Sequence record: NC_042128.1
Strand: one strand, 5' to 3'
DNA: 64,000 nt
Origin: Escherichia phage RCS47
Below, one piece after another: positions 15,947-32,477 of the stretch. The notes under the pieces are model-generated. The model had not been told where the DNA came from. It saw only the letters and a list, made by a program, of their open reading frames with translations, and searched no databases. The position numbers and the translations under genes were made by a program. The first letter of the stretch is position 1. Every line of letters starts with the position of its first letter.

Positions 15947-16766
15947 GGCACTGTTGCAAATAGTCGGTGGTGATAAACTTATCATCCCCTTTTGCTGATG
16001 GAGCTGCACATGAACCCATTCAAAGGCCGGCATTTTCAGCGTGACATCATTCTGTGGGCCGTACGCTGGTACTGCAAATACGGCATCAGTTACCGTGAGC
16101 TGCAGGAGATGCTGGCTGAACGCGGAGTGAATGTCGATCACTCCACGATTTACCGCTGGGTTCAGCGTTATGCGCCTGAAATGGAAAAACGGCTGCGCTG
16201 GTACTGGCGTAACCCTTCCGATCTTTGCCCGTGGCACATGGATGAAACCTACGTGAAGGTCAATGGCCGCTGGGCGTATCTGTACCGGGCCGTCGACAGC
16301 CGGGGCCGCACTGTCGATTTTTATCTCTCCTCCCGTCGTAACAGCAAAGCTGCATACCGGTTTCTGGGTAAAATCCTCAACAACGTGAAGAAGTGGCAGA
16401 TCCCGCGATTCATCAACACGGATAAAGCGCCCGCCTATGGTCGCGCGCTTGCTCTGCTCAAACGCGAAGGCCGGTGCCCGTCTGACGTTGAACACCGACA
16501 GATTAAGTACCGGAACAACGTGATTGAATGCGATCATGGCAAACTGAAACGGATAATCGGCGCCACGCTGGGATTTAAATCCATGAAGACGGCTTACGCC
16601 ACCATCAAAGGTATTGAGGTGATGCGTGCACTACGCAAAGGCCAGGCCTCAGCATTTTATTATGGTGATCCCCTGGGCGAAATGCGCCTGGTAAGCAGAG
16701 TTTTTGAAATGTAAGGCCTTTGAATAAGACAAAAGGCTGCCTCATCGCTAACTTTGCAACAGTGCC
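15947..16766 (+). mobile_element. IS26 copy 1
   Basis: 820 bp, ends GGCACTGTTGCAAA ... TTTGCAACAGTGCC. Confidence 0.92.
16010..16714 (+). CDS. tnpA: IS26 transposase
   Basis: 234 aa [35 protein letters not shown]... Confidence 0.95.
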
Positions 16767-17421
16767 TTTCGCCCTCATCCGGTTCATGACGGTCGGGCAG
16801 GGAGGCAATCTGAATATGGCGATACTGGCCGGCATATTCGGTAATAAGATGGCTTAAATTGCCGTCCACCTTCTGCGCGTGAAACAGATCTAACTGCACC
16901 GCCAGGTTCGGCCTGTCGACCCGTTTCACCATCGCCAGCGTCTGATATTGACTGTGGTAGAGATAGCCCGGTTTGGTCTGCGGATTCAGCGCTTCGATGA
17001 GTATCCGCTTGTCGTGGCGGGCAAAGCACTCCGCCGCGTAGCGCAGATTATCGATAAGCACGGCCTCGCAGGCTGCGCGATCCGCTCCCGGCGGCACCAC
17101 GCCGGCCATGATATGCACCTGCGGGCAACCGAGCTGGCAGGCATACTCCAGCGCCAGCTCAATATCGCGTCGGGCCTCCGCGCTTCTCCCGGGGATGGCG
17201 GCGAGCCCCCATTCTCCGGCGTTGACGTCGCCGGGTGGGGTATTGAACAGCACCAGCTGCAGCTGGTTCTCCTGCAGGCGCTGTCTGATTTCCCCGGCGG
17301 CATACTCATAGGGAAACAGAAACTCAACGGCTTCAAATCCCGCCCGGGCAGCGGCGGCAAAGCGTTCCAGGAACGGCAGTTCGGTAAACAGCATGGATAA
17401 ATTTGCAGCGAATTTTGGCAT
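16767..17421 (-). pseudogene. ygbM: ygbM-like hydroxypyruvate isomerase family gene, 3' end truncated by IS26
   Basis: N-terminal ~218 aa intact, reading frame continues into IS26. Confidence 0.65.
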
Positions 17422-17425
17422 GGTT

Positions 17426-18046
17426 TTATCTCAGTTCTTTTACTTCGTCAGCGGTCAGGTAGCGGATCTCGCGGTTGCCGAGGGTAAATATCAGCCGTGC
17501 GGTCTCTTCCAGTTCCTCGGTATTGTTGGTGGCTTCGCGCAGCGATGAGCCAGTAACCACCGGTCCGTGGTTGGCCAGTAAAAAGGCGTTATAGCGGGGC
17601 GCCAGCCCGGCCAGCGCCTGGGCAATACGGTCATCGCCCGGCCGGTAGTAGGGAACCACCGGGACGTCGCCGACGCGCATCACCACATAGGGGGTAAAGG
17701 GGCGGATACAGTTGTGCGGATCGAGCCCCTGCAGGCAGGAGAGCGCGGTCAGATAGTGGCTGTGCAAGTGGACGATCGCCTTGCAGGCCGGGTTGTGCAA
17801 ATAGACTGCCCGGTGAAAAGTGACCTCTTTCGACGGTTTGTCGCCGGAGATCCATTCTCCTTGCAGCGTCACCACCGACAACCGCTGAGCCTGCAGTTCG
17901 CCGAGGCAGGCGCCGGTCGGCGTCGCCAGCAGGTTGCCGTCCGGCAGCAGCAGCGACAGATTGCCAGCGGAGCCGGTGGCATAGCCGCGGCTAAATAACG
18001 AGGCGCCAATCTGCACCATTTCCTCTCGCAGTTGTTGCTCAGTCAT
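17426..18046 (-). CDS. ygbL: class II aldolase/adducin family protein (YgbL-like)
   Basis: 206 aa from ATG 18046; part of ygbJKLM-type operon. Confidence 0.65.
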
Positions 18047-19304
18047 GACGAAACTCCTGCTGGGCACGGGCAAAGAACTGGATATCGCCGAAGTTACCTG
18101 ACTTCAGCGCCAGGGAGAGCGGCTGGCGGGTGTCACGCACCCAGGGCACGCCAGGGGAGATGGTCGGCCCAATATGGAACGCCTCAACCCCCAGGGTCTG
18201 CGCCACAATGCTCGACGTTTCCCCTCCGGCCACAATAAAGCGGGTAAATCCTTTCGCCTTCAGGGCGGCGGCAAGAGCGGCAAACAGCTGTTCCACCCGT
18301 TCGCTGCTGGCCTTGTCGCCATACTGCGCCTGGATCCGCTGCAGCGTTTGCGGCTCGGTGGTGGCATAGATCATCGGCGCCAGCGGCGCATCGCGCTGCG
18401 CGTCCACCCAGTCAGTCAGCGTCCTGACGTAGCTCTCCAGATCGGTAAAGCAGGCGCTTAAGTCGACGGCGCGGGCGGGGGCCTGTTGACGATAGGCCGC
18501 CACCTGGCTGTTGGTCATCACCGAGCAGGAGCCCGAGAGCACCACCGCCGGGCCGACCAGCGGCATGCCGGCCTGAGCGCTTTCACCCCGGGCGCCATGG
18601 CGCTGCGCCAAGTCGCGGGCGAGGCCGATGGCGAGGCCGGAACCGCCGGAGACCAGCTTCATCTCCCGCAGCGCCACGCCCTGGGTGAGCAGATCCTGTT
18701 CGCTGAGGGCGTCGAGCACCACATAGCGCACCGCCGGATCGTTGACTGCCGCCAGCGCGGCGGCGACCGCCTCCGGCCCCCGGGCGACAATCGGCCAGGC
18801 AATCAGCGCGGCTTTTCCGCGCCCCTGGCGCTCAATTAAGCGGCCCAGGTGCGCATCCTCCATCGGCGTCACCGGATGGTGGCGCATCCCGGACTCATTC
18901 AGCAGTTGCTCGCCGACGAACAGATATCCCTGATAGACCGTGCGGCCGTTAACCGGCAGCGCCGGGGAAATCACCGTCCGCGTCTCACCCAGCTCGGCCA
19001 GCAGGGCATCCAGCACCGGGCCAATGTTGCCCTGCGCGGTGCTGTCGAAAGTGGAACAGTACTTGAAATAAAACTGCTGACAGCCCTGGGCCTGCAGCCA
19101 GCGCAGGGCCGCCAGCGACTGGCTGACGGCCATTTCCGCCGGGCAGGAGCGAGTTTTCAGGCTGATGACCACCGCCTCGCTGGTCAGCGGAAGATCGCGG
19201 GTCGGCACGCCATTCAGTTGCACCGTCGGCATGCCGTTGCGCACGAGGAAGCTGGCAATATCCGTGGCGCCGGTGAAGTCATCGGCAATGACACCAAGCT
19301 GCAT
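18039..19304 (-). CDS. ygbK: four-carbon acid sugar kinase family protein (YgbK-like)
   Basis: ~421 aa; operon context. Confidence 0.6.
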   Translation of the reverse strand: MQLGVIADDFTGATDIASFLVRNGMPTVQLNGVPTRDLPLTSEAVVISLKTRSCPAEMAVSQSLAALRWLQAQGCQQFYFKYCSTFDSTAQGNIGPVLDALLAELGETRTVISPALPVNGRTVYQGYLFVGEQLLNESGMRHHPVTPMEDAHLGRLIERQGRGKAALIAWPIVARGPEAVAAALAAVNDPAVRYVVLDALSEQDLLTQGVALREMKLVSGGSGLAIGLARDLAQRHGARGESAQAGMPLVGPAVVLSGSCSVMTNSQVAAYRQQAPARAVDLSACFTDLESYVRTLTDWVDAQRDAPLAPMIYATTEPQTLQRIQAQYGDKASSERVEQLFAALAAALKAKGFTRFIVAGGETSSIVAQTLGVEAFHIGPTISPGVPWVRDTRQPLSLALKSGNFGDIQFFARAQQEFRHD

Positions 19305-19315
19305 GTTGTCTCTCC

Positions 19316-20218
19316 TCACTGTTTATGGCCCGGCAGGGTGATGCCGTTGAAAATCTTGATCACCGCGCTGTCATCTTCCCGACCGAATCCGGCATTACTG
19401 GCGGAGGTGAACATATTCAGCGCGGTGGTAGCGAGCGGCAGCGGGAAGGTCAGCGCCCGGGCAGTGTCATTCACCAGCCCGAGATCTTTGACAAAAATAT
19501 CGACAGCGGATTTTGGCGAGTAATCGCCATCCAGGACGTGCTGCATGCGATTCTCAAACATCCATGAATTACCCGCCGCGTGGGTGACCACGTCATACAT
19601 CGTTTCGAGTGGGATCCCGGCGCGGGCGGCAAGCGCCATCGCTTCGGCGGCAACGGCGATGTGCACCCCGGCCAGCAGCTGATGGATAATTTTTACCGTC
19701 GAGCCAAGACCAATGTCGCTCCCTATGCGGTAGACTTTGCCGGCCACGGCGTCCAGCACCGGCGCGAGGCGGGCAAAGGCGGCATCGCTCCCGGAGGCCA
19801 TCACCGTCATGTCGCCGGCGGCCGCTTTCACGGCGCCGCCCGATACCGGCGCGTCGAGCATCAATAGCTGGTACTCCGCCAGCGCCTCGGCAATGGCCTG
19901 AGCATCGGCGGAAGCGATGGTGGACGACACCATCACGACGGTGCCCGGCTTCAGATGGGCGGCGAGGCCGCTCTCGCCGAACAGGATCCCCCGCACCTGG
20001 GCGGCATTGACCACCAGCAGCACAACTGCATCCAGTTCCGCGGCGAACGGCACCGCGCTGGGGCCCGCGCCATTGGCGCCCGCCGCCAGCAGTGCGCGAC
20101 AGTTGTCGGGATTGATGTCAACGCCCCAGGTGTTCAGGCCCGCCTGCAGGCAGGCGCGGGCGGCGCCCATGCCCATTGAACCCAGTCCAATCACGCAGAC
20201 GTTAGTGTGTGCAGCCAT
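19316..20218 (-). CDS. ygbJ: NAD-dependent 3-hydroxyisobutyrate dehydrogenase family protein (YgbJ-like)
   Basis: 300 aa; N-terminal GLGSMG Rossmann motif. Confidence 0.7.
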   Translation of the reverse strand: MAAHTNVCVIGLGSMGMGAARACLQAGLNTWGVDINPDNCRALLAAGANGAGPSAVPFAAELDAVVLLVVNAAQVRGILFGESGLAAHLKPGTVVMVSSTIASADAQAIAEALAEYQLLMLDAPVSGGAVKAAAGDMTVMASGSDAAFARLAPVLDAVAGKVYRIGSDIGLGSTVKIIHQLLAGVHIAVAAEAMALAARAGIPLETMYDVVTHAAGNSWMFENRMQHVLDGDYSPKSAVDIFVKDLGLVNDTARALTFPLPLATTALNMFTSASNAGFGREDDSAVIKIFNGITLPGHKQ

Positions 20219-20478
20219 GCTGGTCTCCTTGTGAACATTAGTTAATTAATGTGATTTAATGATAGAATAAAGCGTTATCATGTGAATTTATGTGAGAGTT
20301 ATCACGAATAACCCACATGAATATAAAAAATTCACAGGCGGAAAGAGGCTGCACAACGGCGATTCTTGCCCTAAAATAGCGTAAAAACAGCGGCAAAGCG
20401 CGATAACAACACCGGGTGTCGCCAGGGCCGTAGCCTGGGTGGTGACGCCTGGTGTGAAAAAATGGTAAGGGGAGAGCG

Positions 20479-21240
20479 GTGATTCCAATAGAACGACATC
20501 AGCGTATTTTAGCCCTGGTGGAGCAGCGTGGGGCGGTAAGCATTAACGAGCTGACGGAGATCCTCGGCGTGTCCCATATGACCATCCGTCGGGACGTCAG
20601 TAAACTGGAGGAGCAGGGGCTGCTGGTCAGCGTCTCGGGCGGCGTGCGCGCCGTCAGCCGGCTGGCTGCGGAACCCAGTCATCTGGTGAAAAGCACGCTG
20701 CAGAGTGAGGAGAAACAGGCGATCGGCGCGCTGGCGGCGAGTCATATCGCTAAAAACAGTTGCATCTATCTGGATGCCGGGACTACCACCCTGGCGCTGG
20801 CGCGGGCGATCCTCGACCGGAACGATCTCCAGGTGGTCACCAATGATTTTGAGATAACCCAGCTGCTGATCGATGCCAGCCAGTGCGGCGTGATCCACAC
20901 CGGCGGCACTCTGTGCCGGGAGAACCGCTCCTGCGTGGGCGAATCGGCGGCGCGTACGTTACGCCACCTGGCTATCGATACGGCCTTTATCTCCGCCAGC
21001 GGCTGGGACAGTCGCGGGATATTCACCCCTGATGAGAACAAGGTTACCGTCAAGGAGACCGTCAGCCAGGTCAGCGCGAGAAGCATCCTGCTGTGCGACA
21101 GTTCGAAATACAATCAGGTGGCCACGTTTATGGCGTTACCTTTGACCCGGTTCACCACCATCATTACCGACCGGCATCTTTCCGATGCCGCCGCCAGTCA
21201 TATCGCCCGGCACGCCTGCGAGGTGCTGCGGGCCGGATAA
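20479..21240 (+). CDS. ygbI: DeoR family transcriptional regulator (YgbI-like)
   Basis: 253 aa; N-terminal HTH then sugar-binding domain; divergent from ygbJ. Confidence 0.7.
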   Translation: MIPIERHQRILALVEQRGAVSINELTEILGVSHMTIRRDVSKLEEQGLLVSVSGGVRAVSRLAAEPSHLVKSTLQSEEKQAIGALAASHIAKNSCIYLDAGTTTLALARAILDRNDLQVVTNDFEITQLLIDASQCGVIHTGGTLCRENRSCVGESAARTLRHLAIDTAFISASGWDSRGIFTPDENKVTVKETVSQVSARSILLCDSSKYNQVATFMALPLTRFTTIITDRHLSDAAASHIARHACEVLRAG

Positions 21241-21260
21241 CGCGCGCGGCCACCGCCGGG

Positions 21261-22121
21261 TTAGCGTTGCCAGTGCTCGATCAGCGCCGCGCCGATCCCG
21301 GCGATTTGCTGATTTCGCTCGGCCATGCTCGCCGGGGTATCCCGCAGATAAATCACCACAATGCGCTCTGCTTTGTTATTCGGGCCAAGCAGGGCGACAA
21401 TCCCGCGCGCACCCCGCTCGCTAGCTCCGGTCTTATCGGCGATAAACCAGCCCGCCGGCAGCACGGAGCGGATCAACGGTCCGGCGACCCGATCGTCCAC
21501 CATCCACTGCAGCAGCTGCCGTTGCGAACGGGCGCTCAGACGCTGGCTGGTCAGCAGCTTGCGCAGGGTCGCGGCCATGCTGGCCGGGGTAGTGGTGTCG
21601 CGGGCGTCGCCGGGAAGCGCCTCATTCAGTTCCGTTTCCCAGCGGTCAAGGCGGGTGACGTTGTCGCCGATCTGGCGCAAAAAGGCAGTCAATCCTGCGG
21701 GGCCGCCGACGGTGGCCAGTAGCAGATTGGCGGCGCTGTTATCGCTCATGGTAATGGCGGCGGCGCAGAGTTCGCCGACCGTCATGCCGTCGGCAAGGTG
21801 TTTTTCGCTGACCGGCGAGTAGTCCACCAGATCCTGCTGGCGATAGTGGATCTTTCGCTCCAGCTGTTCGTCACCGGCATCCACCCGCGCCAGCACTGCG
21901 CCGCAGAGCACTACTTTAAAGGTGCTCATCATGGGAAAGCGTTCATCGGCGCGCCAGGCGGTCAGCGTGCGGCCGCTGGCCAGATCCATTTCTATCATGC
22001 CTACGCGGCCCGACAGCTGGCTTTCGCTTAGTTTAATTTGCTCAAGCGGCTGCGGGCTGGCGTGTACCGCCAGCGGCAGGGTGGCTAACAGGGAGATAAT
22101 ACACAGGCGAATATAACGCAT
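21261..22121 (-). CDS. blaSHV: SHV class A beta-lactamase, Ser238 variant (SHV-2-like, extended-spectrum)
   Basis: 286 aa [21 protein letters not shown]...; [11 protein letters not shown] with AGC (Ser) codon at Ambler 238, Glu240, Leu35. Confidence 0.93.
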
Positions 22122-22397
22122 AACCACAATACATCCTTGAGTGAGGGCCGATAAAGGCGAGTAAAGAAGCGACAAATAAGAATAACCCGGCGTTTTGCTG
22201 ATTCACAATTCCTCTTTTTTCCTTCATCATTTTTCATCTTTTATTTCGAATAATCAATATCTAGCCCTGCCTAAGCACGCTATTTTTTGACTCAAGGCCG
22301 TGATGAACTATAAGAAAGTACTAAATACCGCACTCTGTCGGGCGTCGCTGTTTGCCGATCACCACGCCCGCCGGTCCCTGCGGTTCGCCAACGCTAT

Positions 22398-22679
22398 ATG
22401 CCATCCCGGGAGGAACTGGTGCACCCGATAATTAAGGTCATGCTGGTGGGCGGTAAGGCGGACGGGCTGTTGGTCAGCGTCGCCGATGACGCGACCGAAG
22501 TCTCGGTGACGCCTGCGCAGTACGGTGCGCTATCCGGGCAATCGTTGAGCTACCGAATTGTTAGCCAAACCATTGACGATGAACGCTATTTTTTTGGCGT
22601 TTTCAGCGACGCCCATCAGGATAGCGATAAGCTGACGCGGGTCGCCCTGACCCGTGGAATGAAAAAAATGTTCTGTTAA
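22398..22679 (+). CDS. hypothetical small protein upstream of recF-like ATPase
   Basis: 93-aa ORF, no recognisable motif. Confidence 0.3.
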   Translation: MPSREELVHPIIKVMLVGGKADGLLVSVADDATEVSVTPAQYGALSGQSLSYRIVSQTIDDERYFFGVFSDAHQDSDKLTRVALTRGMKKMFC

Positions 22680-22765
22680 ACCCTGCCCGAAAGGGGGCGT
22701 AAGAGGGTATGCCGGGCGCCGCTGTGCTACTGTGGCAGCCTTCTATTTCCAGGGCCGGACGCATA

Positions 22766-23854
22766 ATGATTCAGTACATTCGTATTCAAAATTTTCGCTC
22801 AGTAAAGGATATCGCGCTGGAGCTCGGGCCGCTGAACATTGTCTTCGGCCCTAACGGCTGCGGTAAATCCAATATTTATAACGCCATCCACCTGCTGACC
22901 GCTGCCGCTGAGGGCAGGCTTTCGGGGTTTATCAGCGAAGAGGGCGGTCTGGAGAATATGATGTGGTCCGGGGAGCGTTCGCCCCTCGATCGTCACCCCC
23001 GCCGGCTGCAAATCGCCTGCCGGACCGACAGCTTCGATTATGAACTGCAGATAGGCTTCCCTGAAAAATTGCCCTATCCGACGCAATTCATGCTCGATCC
23101 TATCGTTAAAGAAGAGAATATCTGGCTGGCCGGCTACTCCCGCCGGCCTTCCTCCCGCGTACTGCAGCGCAAGAATCAGGCGGCGTTTCTCGTCGATGTC
23201 ACCGGGGAGAAAAGTACTTTCACCGAGAGTATTTATGAAAATGAGTCGGTGTTCGGTCAGCTTGGCGAGCCGCACCGTTTTCCCGAAGTATCGCGAGTGC
23301 GGGAGACGCTGCGCCGTTGGCGGTTTTATCATGAATTCGCGATTGGCCGTCATTCGCCACTGCGTCAGCCGGCCGTGGGTTACCGTTCGCCAGTCCTCGA
23401 CAGCGATGGCCAGAATCTCGCCGCCGCCTTTCAGACCATTGTCGAGATCGGCGCGGAGGAGATTTTGCATGAAATCCTTGCCGACGCCTTTCCCGGCTGC
23501 CAGTTTTATTGTGAAAACGAGCACTCGCGTTTCGCTCTGAAAATGCGTCGCGAAGGGATCCGCCGCCCGCTGCTGGCGGCGGAGATGTCCGACGGTACGC
23601 TGCGCTTTTTGTGCCTCGCCGTCGCGCTGCTCAGTCCGCGCCCGCCGGCGTTTCTGGCGATCAATGAACCGGAGAACAGCCTGCATCGCGACATGTTGCC
23701 CGCGCTGGCCCGGCTGATTATCGAGGCCTCGCGCTACAGCCAGATCTGGCTGACCAGCCACTCGGCGGAGCTGGCGGAGCTTATCGCCGCCGGGGCGCCT
23801 TGTCAGCGCTATGCGCTGGAGAATCGCGGCGGTGAGACGCGGATTGTCGAGTGA
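22766..23854 (+). CDS. RecF-like AAA family ATPase
   Basis: 362 aa from ATG 22766; MIQYIRIQNFRS, Walker A GPNGCGKSN, C-terminal LAINEPENSLH. Confidence 0.7.
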   Translation: MIQYIRIQNFRSVKDIALELGPLNIVFGPNGCGKSNIYNAIHLLTAAAEGRLSGFISEEGGLENMMWSGERSPLDRHPRRLQIACRTDSFDYELQIGFPEKLPYPTQFMLDPIVKEENIWLAGYSRRPSSRVLQRKNQAAFLVDVTGEKSTFTESIYENESVFGQLGEPHRFPEVSRVRETLRRWRFYHEFAIGRHSPLRQPAVGYRSPVLDSDGQNLAAAFQTIVEIGAEEILHEILADAFPGCQFYCENEHSRFALKMRREGIRRPLLAAEMSDGTLRFLCLAVALLSPRPPAFLAINEPENSLHRDMLPALARLIIEASRYSQIWLTSHSAELAELIAAGAPCQRYALENRGGETRIVE

Positions 23855-23884
23855 AGCCCGTCATCCCTGACGGGGGCGCTGGAG

Positions 23885-24763
23885 TCAGGCGGGGCTCTGC
23901 GTCTCTGCGGTCGGCAGCAGACGGTTGCCGCCGCGTAGGGTGACGAACGAGAGCAGGGTGAAGCTCAGGGTTATGCAGCCGAGGATCAGATAGGCCTGAT
24001 GGAAGCCGACGGTGTCGTACATCCGGCCCACCCAGGCGGAAAGCACCACCCCGGACAGCTGTTTTGACAGATTAAAACCGATCAGGAACAGGGTGGCCGA
24101 GAGGCGCGGGTTAAAGGCGGAAGAGATATATTTAAAAGTTCCCACCAGCAGGAAGGGGATCTCAAACATATGCAGCATCTTGAGGATCACCACCTCGACT
24201 GCCGATGAGGCGAAGGACGACCCGAGAATACGCACCGACATGATCATCCCCGCGGTCAGCAGGGCGTTTTTGGCGCCGATGCGGTTAACGATGGCCGGCG
24301 CGCAGAACATGATCAGCGCGTTGAGCAACTCGCCGCCGGTGGTGACGAAGCCAAACACTTCGGTACCGCGCTGCGGACTGGCGAAAAAGCTTTTGAAAAA
24401 GTTGGCGAACTGCTGGTCAAACACGTCGTAGACGCTGGCGACACCCACCACATAGACGATAAAGCCCCAGAAGCGCGGCATACGCAGCAGCTCTGCCGCC
24501 GTACGCAGCGAAAAGGCCTGGCGATTGGCGCCCAGCGCCTCGATAACCTGGGCGCTGTTGCTGCTTTCCGGCCGCGACAGCCAGAGCAGCAGACCGAGCA
24601 CCAGCGCAAAGCCGGAGGCGATCCAGAAGGTGATATTGGGATCGATGCCGAACAGCACGCCGGTTATCGAGGCGCATAGCGCCCAGCCGACGCAGCCTGC
24701 GACCCGCACTTTGCCATATTCAAAGCGGTTGGCCCGGCTGACGCGTTCGATATAAGCTTCCAC
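23885..24763 (-). pseudogene. lacY: lacY lactose permease, 5' end truncated by IS26
   Basis: C-terminal ~290 aa of an MFS permease colinear with LacY (...FEYGKVRVAGCVGWALCAS...); frame continues into IS26. Confidence 0.8.
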
Positions 24764-25583
24764 GGCACTGTTGCAAATAGTCGGTGGTGATAAACTTATC
24801 ATCCCCTTTTGCTGATGGAGCTGCACATGAACCCATTCAAAGGCCGGCATTTTCAGCGTGACATCATTCTGTGGGCCGTACGCTGGTACTGCAAATACGG
24901 CATCAGTTACCGTGAGCTGCAGGAGATGCTGGCTGAACGCGGAGTGAATGTCGATCACTCCACGATTTACCGCTGGGTTCAGCGTTATGCGCCTGAAATG
25001 GAAAAACGGCTGCGCTGGTACTGGCGTAACCCTTCCGATCTTTGCCCGTGGCACATGGATGAAACCTACGTGAAGGTCAATGGCCGCTGGGCGTATCTGT
25101 ACCGGGCCGTCGACAGCCGGGGCCGCACTGTCGATTTTTATCTCTCCTCCCGTCGTAACAGCAAAGCTGCATACCGGTTTCTGGGTAAAATCCTCAACAA
25201 CGTGAAGAAGTGGCAGATCCCGCGATTCATCAACACGGATAAAGCGCCCGCCTATGGTCGCGCGCTTGCTCTGCTCAAACGCGAAGGCCGGTGCCCGTCT
25301 GACGTTGAACACCGACAGATTAAGTACCGGAACAACGTGATTGAATGCGATCATGGCAAACTGAAACGGATAATCGGCGCCACGCTGGGATTTAAATCCA
25401 TGAAGACGGCTTACGCCACCATCAAAGGTATTGAGGTGATGCGTGCACTACGCAAAGGCCAGGCCTCAGCATTTTATTATGGTGATCCCCTGGGCGAAAT
25501 GCGCCTGGTAAGCAGAGTTTTTGAAATGTAAGGCCTTTGAATAAGACAAAAGGCTGCCTCATCGCTAACTTTGCAACAGTGCC
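24764..25583 (+). mobile_element. IS26 copy 2 (direct orientation)
   Basis: 820 bp with same terminal IRs and identical transposase ORF. Confidence 0.92.
24827..25531 (+). CDS. tnpA: IS26 transposase
   Basis: identical 234-aa product. Confidence 0.95.
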   Translation: MNPFKGRHFQRDIILWAVRWYCKYGISYRELQEMLAERGVNVDHSTIYRWVQRYAPEMEKRLRWYWRNPSDLCPWHMDETYVKVNGRWAYLYRAVDSRGRTVDFYLSSRRNSKAAYRFLGKILNNVKKWQIPRFINTDKAPAYGRALALLKREGRCPSDVEHRQIKYRNNVIECDHGKLKRIIGATLGFKSMKTAYATIKGIEVMRALRKGQASAFYYGDPLGEMRLVSRVFEM

Positions 25584-25822: not shown

Positions 25823-26605
25823 GTGGAAAATACTAAAGCAATTCAATACCGCCTGCGTAATGGCCAGAGTGTCGAAGTGACCATCAATAATGATGGAGTA
25901 CCTGGCGAAAAGGTTTCTATCTCTGATCTGGCTATCGAAAAAACCATCATGTGCCACCTTGGCTTTACTGAAGAAGTGAGCAAAAAGCATGGTGTAGCAA
26001 TCTGGAGCGCAATGGATACTGGTATGCGCAAATTCATTACTGCTCGTACCCCAGGGATGACCATGATGGACCTCATGCAGATTGCGCCGCTGTTTGAATG
26101 TGAGCCTTTAGATGTATTCAGCAATCCAGCTATCTGCCAGCAGTTATATGGTGAGATGAAACTCGCGGTTACCCCCATTGTGCTGCATGAAGGATCGCTT
26201 GCTGGCGTGTGGAAAGTAGAGCGTATTTCAAGCTACATGCCTTTCCATGTCAACGGCGTAATCACTGGTGAAAATCAACCTGTTTCCGTTATAAAGTCAG
26301 ACCTCAAGCGCGCAATTCTTGAAGCAAGTTGTCGAGTTGTCGGCCTGGGCAAACAGTCTTATGTTTCCTTCCCGGCTGGCCCTGAAGGCCCGGCAGAAAT
26401 TCTGATCATGGATGCCGATCTGCTATGGCAAATACAGTTTCTGATTGGCAAAAGCATCATCCGCGCTGAAGAACTCGATCAGTACATTACCTGCACGATG
26501 ACGGATGAAGTCAAAAGTGTAGCTATAGCCAATGCCCGGAACCTATGTCGTGCTGCATTAACAGAATTGCAAGAAAACACCACGGAAGAAGTGGAAAGCG
26601 ATTAA
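25823..26605 (+). CDS. hypothetical phage protein
   Basis: 260-aa ORF, GTG start after GGAG. Confidence 0.45.
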   Translation: MENTKAIQYRLRNGQSVEVTINNDGVPGEKVSISDLAIEKTIMCHLGFTEEVSKKHGVAIWSAMDTGMRKFITARTPGMTMMDLMQIAPLFECEPLDVFSNPAICQQLYGEMKLAVTPIVLHEGSLAGVWKVERISSYMPFHVNGVITGENQPVSVIKSDLKRAILEASCRVVGLGKQSYVSFPAGPEGPAEILIMDADLLWQIQFLIGKSIIRAEELDQYITCTMTDEVKSVAIANARNLCRAALTELQENTTEEVESD

Positions 26606-26616
26606 ATGTATTAGCT

Positions 26617-27800
26617 CAGACCTGATCTGACAGTTACCGGTTATTTATACAGGTATCTGTCAGATTACATCTGGCTTAAATTTTTCTCGGCCCAGATGCG
26701 TTTTCCATCAAGTAACGTTTCCATTGGCGTACGCCCACAGCACATTTTTCCCTGATGAGTTCGCTCATTATTGTAATGCCACAACCACTTGTCCAGATCC
26801 ATTTGCAGGCTTTCCAGGTTTGTATATAGCTTTTTACGGAACGTAACCTGATAAAACTCCTGCAAAATGGTCTTATGGAAGCGCTCGCAGATGCCGTTCG
26901 TCTGCGGAGACATCGCCTTCGTTTTCGTATGGTCAATGTCGTTGATAGCCAGATACAACTGATAATCATGCTGCTCAACTTTACCACAGTACTCTGTTCC
27001 CCTATCGGTCATGATTCTCAGCATCGGCAGCCCCTGAGACTCGTAGAACGGCAGTACACGATCATTGAGCAAATCAGCTGCGGTGATCGGCGTTTTACTC
27101 GTATATAGTTTGCAGTGTGCCACTTTCGAGTACGTATCCACGAACGTCTGCTGATAGATACGGCCAACACCTTTCAGGTTGCCCACGTAGAAGGTGTCCT
27201 GTGACCCCAGATACCCCGGATGTGCCGTTTCGATTTCACCGTTGGCCTCATCATCCTGGGCTTTCTTTTCTAGCGCTGCGATTTGAGCGTCAGTGAGTAC
27301 GATCCCTTCTCTGGCGACTTTTTCTTCAAGTGCTTTCAGACGTTTACGGAAGTTCTCCAGGTCGTGTCGTTGCCAGATGGAGCGTACGCCGCTGCCGGAG
27401 ATAAATACGCCTTTCTTACGCAGTTCATTACTGGTCCGGTGCTGCCCATGAGCCGGAAACTCAATTGCGTACTCAACAACTGCACGTTCAGTCGCTTCAT
27501 CGACACGGTTCTTTATGTTCGGGACTCTGCGGTTCTGATTAACCAAAGCATCAATACCGCCTTCCTCAGCCAGTTCCTGATAGCGGTAAAATGTGTCGCG
27601 TGACACCCCCATGATTTTACAGGCTTTTGATACGTTACCGAGTTCTTCGGCGAGGTTGAGCAGACCGACTTTGTGTTTGATGATGGGATTGTTAGTATGA
27701 AGCATGAGAGTTACCTCGTGTTTTGTATAAGGATTAGACACCCATATCAAAACCGGTAACTCTCAACCTTTCAAGGCTCAGTGTCAGATCAAGTCGCGAC
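26617..27800 (-). mobile_element. IS481-family insertion sequence (boundaries approximate)
   Basis: single transposase ORF flanked by imperfect inverted repeats containing TGATCTGACA and GTTACCGGTT. Confidence 0.6.
26665..27705 (-). CDS. IS481-family DDE transposase (HTH plus rve integrase core)
   Basis: 346 aa from ATG 27705 after GAGGT; C-terminal ...SPQTNGICERFHKTILQEFY... integrase-core signature. Confidence 0.7.
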   Translation of the reverse strand: MLHTNNPIIKHKVGLLNLAEELGNVSKACKIMGVSRDTFYRYQELAEEGGIDALVNQNRRVPNIKNRVDEATERAVVEYAIEFPAHGQHRTSNELRKKGVFISGSGVRSIWQRHDLENFRKRLKALEEKVAREGIVLTDAQIAALEKKAQDDEANGEIETAHPGYLGSQDTFYVGNLKGVGRIYQQTFVDTYSKVAHCKLYTSKTPITAADLLNDRVLPFYESQGLPMLRIMTDRGTEYCGKVEQHDYQLYLAINDIDHTKTKAMSPQTNGICERFHKTILQEFYQVTFRKKLYTNLESLQMDLDKWLWHYNNERTHQGKMCCGRTPMETLLDGKRIWAEKNLSQM

Positions 27801-27811
27801 TAATACAGATT

Positions 27812-27837
27812 AAAAAAATCCCGCCGATTGGCGGGAT
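27812..27837 (-). terminator. rho-independent terminator ending the dar operon
   Basis: ATCCCGCC-GATT-GGCGGGAT followed on the minus strand by T7. Confidence 0.6.
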
Positions 27838-27841
27838 TTCT

Positions 27842-28153
27842 TCAATATACGATCTGGTCTACATGATCACCAAAATCATCGTCGTCGTCGTCCTCATCGC
27901 CACCATCTACTGCTGGCCAATCAACAAACCAGCCAGCGTAAAGATGCAGCGTTCGGAGAACATCACTTGCGGGAGCATCAAGGGTGTTAACGAATCCCAT
28001 ATAGCTATTGGGATTTGCCCCAGCTATGGCTTCAGCGATCATGTCCTCGGTAATGTCACCGGAGATAATGCTTAAACGCCCGGAAACTTCTTCATTATCA
28101 TCAAATTCGATAATGGCATCTCCGCCTAATGGCGCTGCGATTTTAATCTGCAT
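27842..28153 (-). CDS. highly acidic small protein, last gene of dar operon
   Basis: 103 aa, overlaps ddrB stop; GGDEDDDDDDFGDH acidic tract. Confidence 0.5.
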   Translation of the reverse strand: MQIKIAAPLGGDAIIEFDDNEEVSGRLSIISGDITEDMIAEAIAGANPNSYMGFVNTLDAPASDVLRTLHLYAGWFVDWPAVDGGDEDDDDDDFGDHVDQIVY

Positions 28154-31130
28154 TATTTAGCTCCTTTGCCACACCTAATAACAGTTCCAGCAATCCGTCA
28201 CCATTCATCAGTGATGCGGCAGCGGCCTCTTTGTCATGATACAACTGAAGAGCCATAGAGAATACTTCCGTTGCTGACGTTTTGGAAATAGTCGGTGATT
28301 TCTGCCGAATTTTCCCTGAGTTACTCACTGAGACTGGCGGGTATACCTTCGCCATATAAATATTACTCAATCGAGATCTGAAGCACCATTCAGGCTTGCC
28401 ACGCCCACCGATATTGACGAAAGATGGCTTATCCCCTTCAACATTGGCCTTCAGGAATGACCGGGCTTTCTCTAACAAACCAGGGTTACTGTACTCAAGA
28501 TGATGACCCAGCTCGTGCCACAGTGCATTTGCATTTTCATCGTGCAAATCGACAGCAACAACACCATTAAGATTTGCATACGCCCTACCCTGGTGGTGAA
28601 CTACCTTTGATAAGGTCGATATTTTCCCGCCGGTCAGGCGATAAATATCAGCAAGTTCCTTGCGCAGGTCTATCCCACCATTCTGTCCAGCGCGGGCTTC
28701 TTCCACTTCTTCCGTGATAAAAGAGTCGGCCCACTCAAGAGCTTTTTCTTCTGATACAGATGAGTTGGCGATCGCACTGTTCATGGCAGATAACACTTTC
28801 TCGTAGACCGAATCCATACTTCGCTGATTCATTTGCCAGCGTGTCTGCGGGTTATATGAGAATCGCTTAAGTAGTTGGTCAAGCTGCTCAAGTTCTTCTT
28901 CACTGACATACTTTTTAGCCTCACCAATAATGCCAGGGAGAATATTGCCGTTAGGATTAAACGCTCGCGAAAGGAAGAGTTTCAGCGCCCCCATGCCCTC
29001 CGATGCTTCAATATCACCAATAACCCGGTTAACAATGGCCGCACTCTTCGGATTAGCATCCGCCAACGCTCTGGCTACGATTTGCAGGGACGATACGACC
29101 TCACGCTGCATATCAGTCCTGATCTCATCAATAAACTCTGGCGTTATGCCGTGCTCTTTAAGGATATCCCGGCCTTCCGCCGTTACCCCATCGATATCAC
29201 CGACATGTTTATTAACACGACTTTGCAATGCCTTAAATGCCTTCAGAATTCCACGGGAATCATCCGCTTTACTAACGGCCTTCCTGAATGCTGGCAAGAA
29301 GTCTGAGTTAACCTCATTTTGTTGATCGGCCCACTGAATGGAGGCTTCTTTCATCTCGTCCAGAGTCAGATCACCCAACGCGGTATGGTCTGTGAATATG
29401 AGCGACAACCTCTGAACCATTTCTGCCAATGGTGATGCCGAATGCGCCGCGCTAAGGAATGCTTTCACCCTGGTTGGGCGAATGGAAAACCAGTCAATAG
29501 CTGGTGGCATATCTCCGTTTTGTATCGCCTGCGCTATCTCATCAAAGCCATCGCGCCCAAGGGAAGATGCGTGATTTAACAATCCGCGAAGTAACGAATT
29601 GCTGATACCGAATAATCGGCACCATTTATTCACGTCGGCAACAGGCATTCGAACAAAATGCGCAAGCACTTGTACAAGCTGTTCATCCTGGGGATCTGTG
29701 CGGGAAAGCAGCCTGATCAGATGAATAATGTCTTTGATGCCGGATGCCCGATGTAATAGCAAACTGGTATACGGAGCAACACCGTTGTAACTACCGCCGG
29801 AAACGGACTCGAAAAGACCGCCGGATATCCCTTGCATGCCTTCGTTTTCCAGTTCCTGAGACACCTGGCGAAGGATATCCTGTAACGACACATCGCCGCC
29901 GCCAAACATATCCCCGAGCGCCTGGCCCTGGTGCTGTAACTCATCATTGATACGTTGCGCCATCAACTTAAAGGCGGTGGCCATACGCTTCGCGCTACGG
30001 TTATTCGCGACGATGAACAACGCGAGTGCTTTCACTTCCGGGGCCGTTTCGCTGAACATATCCCCCTGAGCAATAACATCGGTAATATGCTGGCCTAACT
30101 CCTTCGATTGCCTTACCAGGTCTACCGCATCTTTCAATGCCGCCAGCGCCTTTTTATCGAGGCTATCCGCTGTCTCAATGCCATCAACAATAGTTGTCAC
30201 AGCCTGCTTGTGCGCTTCTCCTGACAAAGCCTGCATCTGGACAAAATCATTGGCTGCCGCATTAAGCGCCGTCAGAACATTACGCATATCCGGATCAGGT
30301 TCTTCTGCAACCATCCTTACCAGGCGCGCATCCTTATATGCCTTGGCAAAGATCGCGTTTTGTATACGGTCTACAAGTTGCCGTGTTGGTCGCCCATCTT
30401 CAGTTACAAGGCCAGCCGCCTGTGTGGCACCAACTTGCGTCATAAATCCGCGAATAAACGTGTCATTACTGCGGCTAAGCAGATCTCCGCTTTCTGACGG
30501 GTTAAAAAGCGCCATCATCGCCGGTGTTATGCTGTCGGCATCAACAAAAGCCTTTTCACTGGCTGCCATTTCCTGAAGATCAGAAATATTTGAGTCCTTG
30601 GCAAACTGAACGCGGTCAACCTTAGTTAACCGGCGGCGCACCAGTACCGGAGCCGTCATTGATTCAACCTTTTCAGGTCGTATGCCGAATTCGGTCGCAT
30701 GATCAATCAGGTACTCACGATACCGATCCGCATTGCCGTCCTGATAGGCTTTAATGATCCCCATGGTCCGTCCATTACCTGACTCAACGGCATTGTCCTC
30801 ACCAATTATCGGCGCGCCATGGCTGGATAGACCGGAATCGGTAAGCTGAGCAGGCCGCAAATCCTTGGATATCTGGTTAACCTGAAGAAGGCTGGATGCG
30901 CGGGTCCGGTCGCGCGGTTGAAGTTCCTGGGGATAGTCAGGATTAATTTTCCCATCCAGAGTATTGGATACCAAAAGAGCTGAGGCATCGACGATATCAA
31001 ACGCTGTTTTTACCTCGTCTCCCTTCGCTGTCACCACATACGAAACCCGCCCATAATCGGGCAGGTTCTTTAGCAGCTCGATCAGCGTTTCTATGCTGGT
31101 GGCCATTACCACCTGATCGCTTAAGCTCAT
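28143..31130 (-). CDS. DdrB-like antirestriction accessory protein
   Basis: 995-aa ORF with ATG start; position downstream of darA/ddrA as in P1. Confidence 0.55.
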   Translation of the reverse strand: MSLSDQVVMATSIETLIELLKNLPDYGRVSYVVTAKGDEVKTAFDIVDASALLVSNTLDGKINPDYPQELQPRDRTRASSLLQVNQISKDLRPAQLTDSGLSSHGAPIIGEDNAVESGNGRTMGIIKAYQDGNADRYREYLIDHATEFGIRPEKVESMTAPVLVRRRLTKVDRVQFAKDSNISDLQEMAASEKAFVDADSITPAMMALFNPSESGDLLSRSNDTFIRGFMTQVGATQAAGLVTEDGRPTRQLVDRIQNAIFAKAYKDARLVRMVAEEPDPDMRNVLTALNAAANDFVQMQALSGEAHKQAVTTIVDGIETADSLDKKALAALKDAVDLVRQSKELGQHITDVIAQGDMFSETAPEVKALALFIVANNRSAKRMATAFKLMAQRINDELQHQGQALGDMFGGGDVSLQDILRQVSQELENEGMQGISGGLFESVSGGSYNGVAPYTSLLLHRASGIKDIIHLIRLLSRTDPQDEQLVQVLAHFVRMPVADVNKWCRLFGISNSLLRGLLNHASSLGRDGFDEIAQAIQNGDMPPAIDWFSIRPTRVKAFLSAAHSASPLAEMVQRLSLIFTDHTALGDLTLDEMKEASIQWADQQNEVNSDFLPAFRKAVSKADDSRGILKAFKALQSRVNKHVGDIDGVTAEGRDILKEHGITPEFIDEIRTDMQREVVSSLQIVARALADANPKSAAIVNRVIGDIEASEGMGALKLFLSRAFNPNGNILPGIIGEAKKYVSEEELEQLDQLLKRFSYNPQTRWQMNQRSMDSVYEKVLSAMNSAIANSSVSEEKALEWADSFITEEVEEARAGQNGGIDLRKELADIYRLTGGKISTLSKVVHHQGRAYANLNGVVAVDLHDENANALWHELGHHLEYSNPGLLEKARSFLKANVEGDKPSFVNIGGRGKPEWCFRSRLSNIYMAKVYPPVSVSNSGKIRQKSPTISKTSATEVFSMALQLYHDKEAAAASLMNGDGLLELLLGVAKELNNAD

Positions 31131-31139
31131 CCCTGTTAC

Positions 31140-32477
31140 GCCTTATCCAATGTGCCGCCCCCTACGCTCCTCATAGTGGGGATATAAGGCACAGTTTTCC
31201 TCCCGGCTATTTTTGCTTAAAATAGTGACATGAAACAACAGGTGTCATTCAAATTCCGGTTAAAACCAGATGGTCAACAGGAGCGTCAAATGAGGCGCTT
31301 TGCCGGAGCTTGTCGTTTCGTTTTCAACCGTGCTCTGGCGCTTCAGAATGAGAATCATGAGGCCGGTAAAAAATACATCCCTTACACGAAAATGGCTTCC
31401 TGGTTGGTTGAGTGGAAAAAAGACACTGAAACCGAATGGCTTAAAGATTCTCCCTCACAGCCATTGCAACAGTCACTGAAAGACCTTGAGCGGGCTTACA
31501 AAAACTTCTTCCAGAATCGGGCAGCTTTTCCCCGATTCAAAAAGCGGGGACAGAATGATGCATTCCGCTACCCGCAGGGTGTTAAGCTCGATCAGGAAAA
31601 CAGCCGTATTTTTCTGCCGAAACTTGGCTGGATGCGCTACCGGAATAGCCGTCAGGTCACGGGTATTGTGAAAAATGTTACTGTCAGCCAGTCCTGCGGT
31701 AAGTGGTACATCAGTATTCAGACAGAAAGAGAGGTATCCACTCCTGTTCACCCTTCAGCATCAATGGTCGGACTGGATGCTGGCGTGGCTAAACTCGCCA
31801 CGCTGTCAGATGGCACAGTCTTTGAACCTGTAAATAGTTTTCAGAAAAACCAGAAGAAGCTGGCGAGACTTCAGCGACAGTTAAGCCGCAAGGTCAAATT
31901 CAGCAACAACTGGCAGAAGCAGAAACGCAAAATACAGCGACTGCATTCCCGTATCGCAAATATCCGCAGGGACTACCTTCACAAAGTCACAACGACCGTC
32001 AGCAAAAACCACGCAATGATTGTCATTGAGGATTTGAAGGTTAAATACATGTCAAAGTCAGCGGCGGGAACGATAAGTCATCCGGGTCGCAATGTCCGGG
32101 CAAAATCAGGTTTAAACCGTTCGATACTGGATCAGGGCTGGTATGAAATGCGCCGCCAGCTTGAGTACAAGCAGCTCTGGCGTGGCGGTCAGGTGCTTGC
32201 TGTTCCGCCAGCGTACACAAGCCAGCGTTGCGCGTGCTGTGGTCATACAGCGAAAGAAAATCGCCTGTCACAAAGTAAATTCAGATGCCAGGTATGTGGA
32301 TATACAGCGAACGCCGATGTAAACGGCGCTCGTAACATTTTAGCGGCGGGGCACGCCGTACTTGCCTGTGGAGGGATGGTGCAGTCAGGCCGCCCGTTGA
32401 AGCAGGAACCCACCGAAATGATTCAGGCGACAGCCTGAACGTAGCAGGAATCCACGCCCTTCGGGGCGTGGAGGATG
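31140..32477 (+). mobile_element. TnpB-only IS200/IS605-family element (boundaries approximate)
   Basis: tnpB ORF plus 3' hairpin CCACGCCC-TTCG-GGGCGTGG at 32452-32471; fills the ddrA-ddrB junction. Confidence 0.6.
31230..32438 (+). CDS. tnpB: TnpB RNA-guided endonuclease family protein
   Basis: 402 aa; [36 protein letters not shown]..., RuvC-like motifs and CxxC...CxxC zinc finger. Confidence 0.85.

Follow-up and report, generated by a model that had tools for sequence, protein, structure and literature searches.

What is the 346-aa open reading frame that lies between isaA and the terminator hairpin of the dar region in Escherichia phage RCS47: a gene of the phage backbone or a mobile element, and, if mobile, of which family and at what cost to its neighbours? 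The window analysed here is a stretch of 64,000 nucleotides of RCS47 (NC_042128.1), and positions refer to that window. Almost certainly, the gene is the transposase of an autonomous 1,201-bp insertion sequence (IS) of the IS481 family, complete from 26607 to 27807 with the transposase on the minus strand, that transposed into a P1-like (SJ46/RCS47-type) phage-plasmid. Both the transposase and the element are already known, as the protein was annotated previously in phage RCS47 and in RefSeq.

The transposase gene (27705-26665, minus strand; stop codon at 26665-26667) encodes 346 aa plus a stop from an ATG that has a GAGG Shine-Dalgarno sequence 8 nt upstream. The list of open reading frames also gives a longer reading of 361 aa from a TTG. 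An N-terminal helix-turn-helix (HTH) and a C-terminal integrase core, described in the initial annotation, were both recovered by Pfam profiles, the former as a winged HTH (HTH_29, E = 2.8e-19, residues 11-73) and the latter as rve (E = 4.8e-7, residues 162-267) and rve_3 (E = 2.2e-11, residues 256-319). The IS481 family, also proposed there, proved correct: the protein passes the NCBIfam equivalog model NF033577 (transpos_IS481) with 289.2 bits against a cutoff of 224, residues 12-330 matching profile positions 2-283 of 284, and inverted repeats and a target duplication are present. Catalytic motifs were identified (GSQDTFYV, IMTDRGTEY and TNGICERFH, with a D-D spacing of 64 and a D-E spacing of 40). 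From their positions in these motifs, D170 (27196-27198), D234 (27004-27006) and E274 (26884-26886; all minus strand) probably form the DDE triad of an RNase-H-like core. The reading frame is uninterrupted and the element has no programmed frameshift arrangement. In public databases, the exact 346-aa protein is CDN90769.1, an 'ISSod13 family transposase' of Escherichia phage RCS47, and in RefSeq it is WP_023352515.1, an IS481 family transposase.

The 1,201 bp include 1,041 bp of transposase gene (with its stop) and no other gene. A repeat finder identified 26-nt terminal inverted repeats, IRR on the transposase 3' side (26607-26632, TGTATTAGCTCAGACCTGATCTGACA) and IRL on the 5' side (27782-27807, TGTCAGATCAAGTCGCGACTAATACA), which are 81% complementary (21 of 26 matches). 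Their tips are perfect, TGTATTAG at one end and CTAATACA at the other, and start with TGT. A 7-bp repeat, GATTAAA, directly abuts both tips and flanks exactly 26607-27807; the left copy (26600-26606) includes the isaA stop codon TAA and the right copy is at 27808-27814. The initial annotation had put the element at 26617-27800 and considered these ends approximate, as they were: the element in fact extends 10 bp further to the left and 7 bp further to the right. It had also reported that no clean target duplication was visible, which does not hold; the duplication was missed because the ends had been placed too far inward. Two motifs described as shared by the inverted repeats are indeed present in inverted orientation, but only TGATCTGACA (26623-26632, complement at 27782-27791) is within the terminal inverted repeat. 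The other, GTTACCGGTT, is subterminal (26633-26642, inverted copy at 27751-27760; a 15-nt pair scored at 93% in the repeat finder) and is not collinear with the terminal repeat, its copy at the transposase 5' end being shifted 21 nt inward. Alignments of element ends show both copies of GTTACCGGTT kept in relatives.

The site without the element was reconstructed by joining both flanks with a single copy of GATTAAA, and this sequence was used for searches. It matches Salmonella phage SJ46 in one piece (98.8%), and base-level alignment shows that SJ46 and pSCEC128 continue across the junction uninterrupted. The empty site in these two reads ...GGAAAGCGATTAAAAAAAATCCCGCC... and, as shown in the alignment, ...GGAAAGCGATTAAAAAAAATCCCGCCGA..., with a one-base homopolymer difference (A8 in SJ46 and pSCEC128; the window reconstructs to A7). 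Alignment with an uninterrupted relative had been recommended in the initial annotation as a way to define the ends and the target duplication. A PLSDB search gave 279 plasmids with coverage of the reconstructed site of 80% or more, mostly E. coli P1-like phage-plasmids with identities of at most 99.3%; some match unbroken and others in two pieces with an extra ORF of ~1.09 kb between them. No PLSDB plasmid carries the junction of IS and flank seen in the window, and a query of the IS plus its flanks found no covering match among 5,426 complete E. coli genomes. The absence of the junction from these plasmids and genomes indicates that the insertion is private to the lineage of the window. PLSDB also contains no full-length match to the IS above 90.5% identity.

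The interval from isaA to hxr is a variable slot in punaviruses (L001 3599-3629; L002 2092-3162; L019 1533-3244). It is empty in the SJ46 type, and in the vB_EcoM-813R1 type it holds an ORF of ~1.07 kb (356 aa) that some records label as terminase large subunit. In P1 it holds IS1 plus isaB. Like the element in RCS47, the IS1 of P1 is thus resident in this interval of a punavirus, between isaA and isaB, but it belongs to the IS1 family, occupies another site and breaks up an additional ORF, one absent from the SJ46/RCS47-type backbone.

Related and identical copies of the element occur outside this phage. More than 100 records align over exactly positions 1-1201 with 83-90% identity and are annotated 'IS481 family transposase', including plasmids of Serratia, Erwinia tracheiphila, Salmonella, Klebsiella, Yersinia and E. 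albertii, and E. coli chromosomes. The alignment of a Pantoea stewartii copy starts only at position 5, its left tip having diverged. The plasmid relatives in Serratia, E. tracheiphila, Salmonella, Klebsiella, Pantoea and Yersinia, at 83-90% identity, have the same inverted repeat tips and 7-bp duplications, and for several relatives in this identity range the latter were read as TTTTATT, CATTAGA, CCTGATT, TATGATG and CATTATA. E. coli MEW, a strain from an ivory gull, has copies 100% identical to the window element at six chromosomal and two plasmid places, and further such copies were recovered from other assemblies via the exact protein sequence. These enterobacterial elements (WP_023352515.1, E. 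coli) differ from that of the window in insertion site. Flanks extracted for identical copies at 12 further distinct sites show a perfect 7-bp duplication at each: CCTGCTG, ACTAAGC, CATTAAC, AATAAAT, TTTAAAG, AATATAG, TCTGATA, ACTGAAC, GATTTAC, AATGAAT, CTTAATG and CATAAAA. With the window (26600-27814), identical copies are therefore known from 13 distinct sites (the others being L020-L029, L005 and L006), from which the element has apparently been active recently.

Duplications were compared in the orientation of the IS for these 13 copies and a 90%-identical relative from Serratia proteamaculans (L012; n = 14). All 14 have T at position 3, 11 of them have A at position 5, and 13 have A or T at position 6. 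This pattern suggests that the IS lineage prefers an AT-rich target with a central T-N-A.

Decayed forms of the lineage were also identified. The phage collection contains no copy of the IS, only a 51-bp match in phage Evi, which has a solo remnant of ~66 bp of the IRR hairpin end (L018 1492-1553). The ylbG gene of K-12 (NZ_CP064680.1 525140-525574) is a 435-bp remnant with 81% identity that comprises the IRL end and the HTH-coding part. A match is present in 3,427 of the 5,426 E. coli genomes, and ylbG accounts for most matches in a sample spread across them. Partial matches also occur in many F-type and Salmonella virulence plasmids, and a truncated IS481-family tnpA has been described at PSLT044 of pSLT (PMC11047700).

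Three other readings of the locus were weighed against that of a transposed IS481-family element. The variability of the isaA-to-hxr interval among punaviruses, and its capacity to hold other genes, could suggest that the ORF is a domesticated integrase-like backbone gene of P1-like phages. The initial annotation had named conservation of the ORF at this site in all relatives as the outcome that would speak for a backbone gene, and the site is in fact empty in SJ46 and pSCEC128. Many other P1-like plasmids and phages also lack the element, its junction with the flanks is absent from the PLSDB plasmids and complete E. coli genomes, and identical 1,201-bp copies are present elsewhere on chromosomes and plasmids, at unrelated sites that all show a separate 7-bp duplication. 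The empty sites refute a backbone gene, and we give this reading essentially no weight. Placement in another DDE family, such as IS3, is extremely unlikely. The IS3 and IS481 families are related, sharing a similar DDE/rve core and an HTH, and the IS3 model NF033516 gives a secondary match of 83.9 bits. However, the cutoff of that model is 160, whereas that of the IS481 model is exceeded, and the transposase falls far under every cutoff of the NCBIfam models for IS3, ISNCY, IS630 and IS21. The single 346-aa ORF also differs from the two-ORF (orfA/orfB) layout with a -1 frameshift that is typical of IS3.

The remaining reading, which we regard as very improbable, replaces a simple transposition: the element would be a dead relic brought in by recombination with flanking DNA, or a component of the neighbouring IS26-blaSHV composite unit. 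Such relics are frequent in this IS lineage (examples are E. coli ylbG and the 66-bp solo end in phage Evi), and an IS26 ends 1,023 bp to the left of the element, at 25583. Against this reading, the 7-bp duplication directly abuts the IS481-family element itself, and SJ46 is collinear both with the DNA between IS26 and the IS and with that beyond the right end of the IS. The ORF is also intact, and the 100% identity to copies at 12 other sites indicates recent activity. We thus retain the interpretation of an autonomous IS481-family element that inserted by transposition.

Other mobile DNA is present in the window. A Klebsiella-type chromosomal segment is enclosed by two IS26 copies in the same orientation (15947-16766 and 24764-25583; 15947-25583 overall). 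Between them are genes for 2-oxo-tetronate isomerase/kinase (ygb sugar-acid) functions, L-threonate dehydrogenase, the YgbI repressor, an SHV beta-lactamase (21261-22175, minus strand), an AAA ATPase and a truncated permease. Upstream of isaA, a DUF2829 gene is cut short at 25583/25584 by the right-hand IS26. RCS47 has been described as a P1-like phage with blaSHV-2 that is close to SJ46 (PMC5241659), and the IS26-bounded SHV module of the window matches the blaSHV-2 module described for it. Adjoining ddrB is a gene for a TnpB-type RNA-guided endonuclease of the IS200/IS605 type (31230-32438; NCBIfam guided_TnpB, 393 bits). SJ46 and pSCEC128 have such a gene in the corresponding position under the name insQ, so that it seems to be a fixed passenger of this backbone.

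The genes on both sides of the IS are intact. To the left is isaA (25823-26605, plus strand, 260 aa), 99% identical to the isaA region of SJ46; to the right are hxr (27842-28153, minus strand, 103 aa) and, upstream of it, ddrB (28143-31130, minus strand). These names were taken from the SJ46, P1 and JL22 annotations beneath matching DNA. Between the IS and hxr is an intact inverted repeat (27812-27839) that constitutes a bidirectional terminator hairpin for isaA on the plus strand and hxr-ddrB on the minus strand. The hairpin proper spans 27818-27837. On the minus strand it folds with -24 kcal/mol (z = -6.9), followed by UUUUUUUAAUC, and a U7 run is retained on the hxr side. A consensus terminator scan did not list the minus-strand hxr terminator; direct folding did reveal the hairpin. 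The location first given for the element, between a 260-aa phage ORF and a dar terminator hairpin, is therefore accurate: the ORF is IsaA, the hairpin folds stably, and it belongs to the hxr-ddrB end of the dar region.

The insertion does not destroy any gene or terminator of the phage. IsaA is unchanged, because the isaA stop codon TAA sits within the duplicated GATTAAA. The hairpin and its A/U run are still beside hxr, so the hxr-ddrB unit should terminate normally. isaA no longer has direct access to the terminator, and its transcripts must enter the IS antisense to the transposase gene.

These features combine into a very probable course of the insertion. The transposase recognises the 26-nt terminal inverted repeats with their TGTATTAG tips, and the element entered the A-run that separates the isaA stop codon from the bidirectional isaA/hxr terminator. 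A 7-bp staggered cut at this AT-rich target, with its central T-N-A, duplicated GATTAAA, which regenerates the isaA stop codon. The chemistry may be of the copy-out-paste-in kind, by analogy with IS3/IS481-type elements; the IS3 family is presumed to share this mechanism.

Both ends of the IS have predicted RNA structures. A stable terminal hairpin (26613-26677; -30.6 kcal/mol, z = -7.5) covers IRR and the transposase stop codon. Transcripts coming from isaA meet it ~10 nt into the IS; in the plus-strand fold TTAAATTTTTCTC comes next, and a consensus scan places a terminator-like site within it (26659-26675, plus strand). Based on folding, this hairpin and its T-rich tract may stop isaA transcripts that enter the IS. 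At the other end, a stem in the 5'-UTR of the transposase gene (27700-27770, minus strand) pairs the Shine-Dalgarno and start region, GAGGTAACTCTCATG, with upstream TTGAGAGTTACC. In the sense of the mRNA, TTGAGAGTTACC pairs with GGTAACTCTCATG, covering the Shine-Dalgarno sequence and the start codon, with a minimum free energy of -32.9 kcal/mol (z = -2.5). The predicted stem may damp translation of read-through transcripts. It resembles the fold-back inhibition of read-through transcripts for which other insertion sequences are known.

The IRR hairpin region is 95% conserved among relatives and the region of the 5'-UTR stem is nearly invariant. Among 11 relatives, the two hairpin regions are 95-97% conserved, and the few substitutions, found in decayed copies, break pairs without compensation. 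Covariation is uninformative for both hairpins because the regions are too conserved. More generally, relatives share 95-100% identity over the 58-nt 3' end and the 102-nt 5' end (95-99% for the 102-nt non-coding 5' end alone), against 81-90% over the coding sequence. Conserved ends with a diverged coding sequence are the pattern that would be expected of transposase-binding and regulatory ends. An extreme case is a copy on an E. albertii plasmid (NZ_CP099872.1; L017 301-1501), with ends 99-100% identical to those of the window element and only 81% identity in the coding part. The contrast points either to ends under very strong constraint or to recombination between IS variants that left a mosaic.

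A consensus scan of the 5' end identified no convincing sigma-70 promoter for the transposase gene. Two candidates seen by eye, TTGAAA-N18-TTGATA and TTGATA-N15-TATACA, are weak and are not claimed as promoters. Inspection by eye for a promoter at a circle junction, with an outward -35 in IRR and an inward -10 in IRL, revealed nothing convincing.

The type element of the family is IS481 of Bordetella pertussis, and ISSod13 is from Shewanella oneidensis. Compared by family profile and features rather than by sequence alignment, the window element resembles the IS481 family in its single transposase with an HTH and an rve DDE core, in its length (~1-1.3 kb in the family), in its TGT inverted repeats and in a short duplication of a quasi-palindromic target. 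Thus, profile, single ORF, domain arrangement, repeat tips, duplication and length (within ~0.95-1.3 kb) all agree with the family assignment. The target differs from that of IS481 itself, which makes a 6-bp NCTAGN duplication, whereas the duplication here is 7 bp with a central T-N-A. A literature search for a name of the element returned only ISKpn28 and generic uses of 'ISSod13'. ISKpn28 of Klebsiella pneumoniae is an IS481-family element of ~1,100 bp with inverted repeats ATATTGCAATT / AATTGCAATAT (PMC6101004); the different repeats and length rule it out as the identity of the window element.

Identical copies of the IS were also identified in other phage-plasmids. A 95-kb P1-like contig (GCA_009790285.1; L021) carries the same IS beside a HipA-like kinase gene; here too it lies in the isaA-to-hxr interval, but at another site, with the duplication TTTAAAG. 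A 102-kb P1-like contig (GCA_964044855.1; L027 and L028) has two copies, one near c1/ant and the other near the res/ref/cre genes. The 161-kb plasmid of E. coli MEW (NZ_JCATIJ010000003.1) contains two identical, directly oriented copies (L004 6001-7201 and L007 6001-7201) with swapped flanks: GATTATC/IS/TTTAATG at the first and TTTAATG/IS/GATTATC at the second. One side of each copy has P1-like genes (a DarB-like methylase, Ref and a Cre-like integrase), and the other side has genes taken as SSU5-like (primase, DnaB-like helicase, tape measure and TipJ). This arrangement is the signature expected when two phage-plasmids have fused at the IS into a cointegrate, be it through replicative cointegration or through recombination of two IS copies.

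Taken jointly, the observations raise the possibility that this lineage has its own 7-bp T-N-A target, that it has colonised P1-like phage-plasmids repeatedly, and that its terminal hairpins both insulate it from read-through transcription and terminate such transcripts. We put this combined proposal forward as speculative and consider it rather unlikely to be right in all its parts. The part on repeated colonisation draws on the window, the 95-kb contig, the two copies of the 102-kb contig and the MEW cointegrate. If true, phage particles would be vehicles for the IS, and the IS would be a fusion point between phage-plasmids.

In itself, the element matters little, as it is a routine and already annotated IS. 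The practical value of the analysis is an exact annotation of the ends, the duplication, the intact isaA and hxr and the terminator. The insertion can serve as a strain marker, as it appears to be unique to the RCS47-like lineage. A minor wider point is illustrated by the distribution of the element: several phage-plasmids of the P1 type carry this IS, and it occupies the two junctions of a P1-like/SSU5-like cointegrate, an example of how insertion sequences remodel and fuse phage-plasmids.
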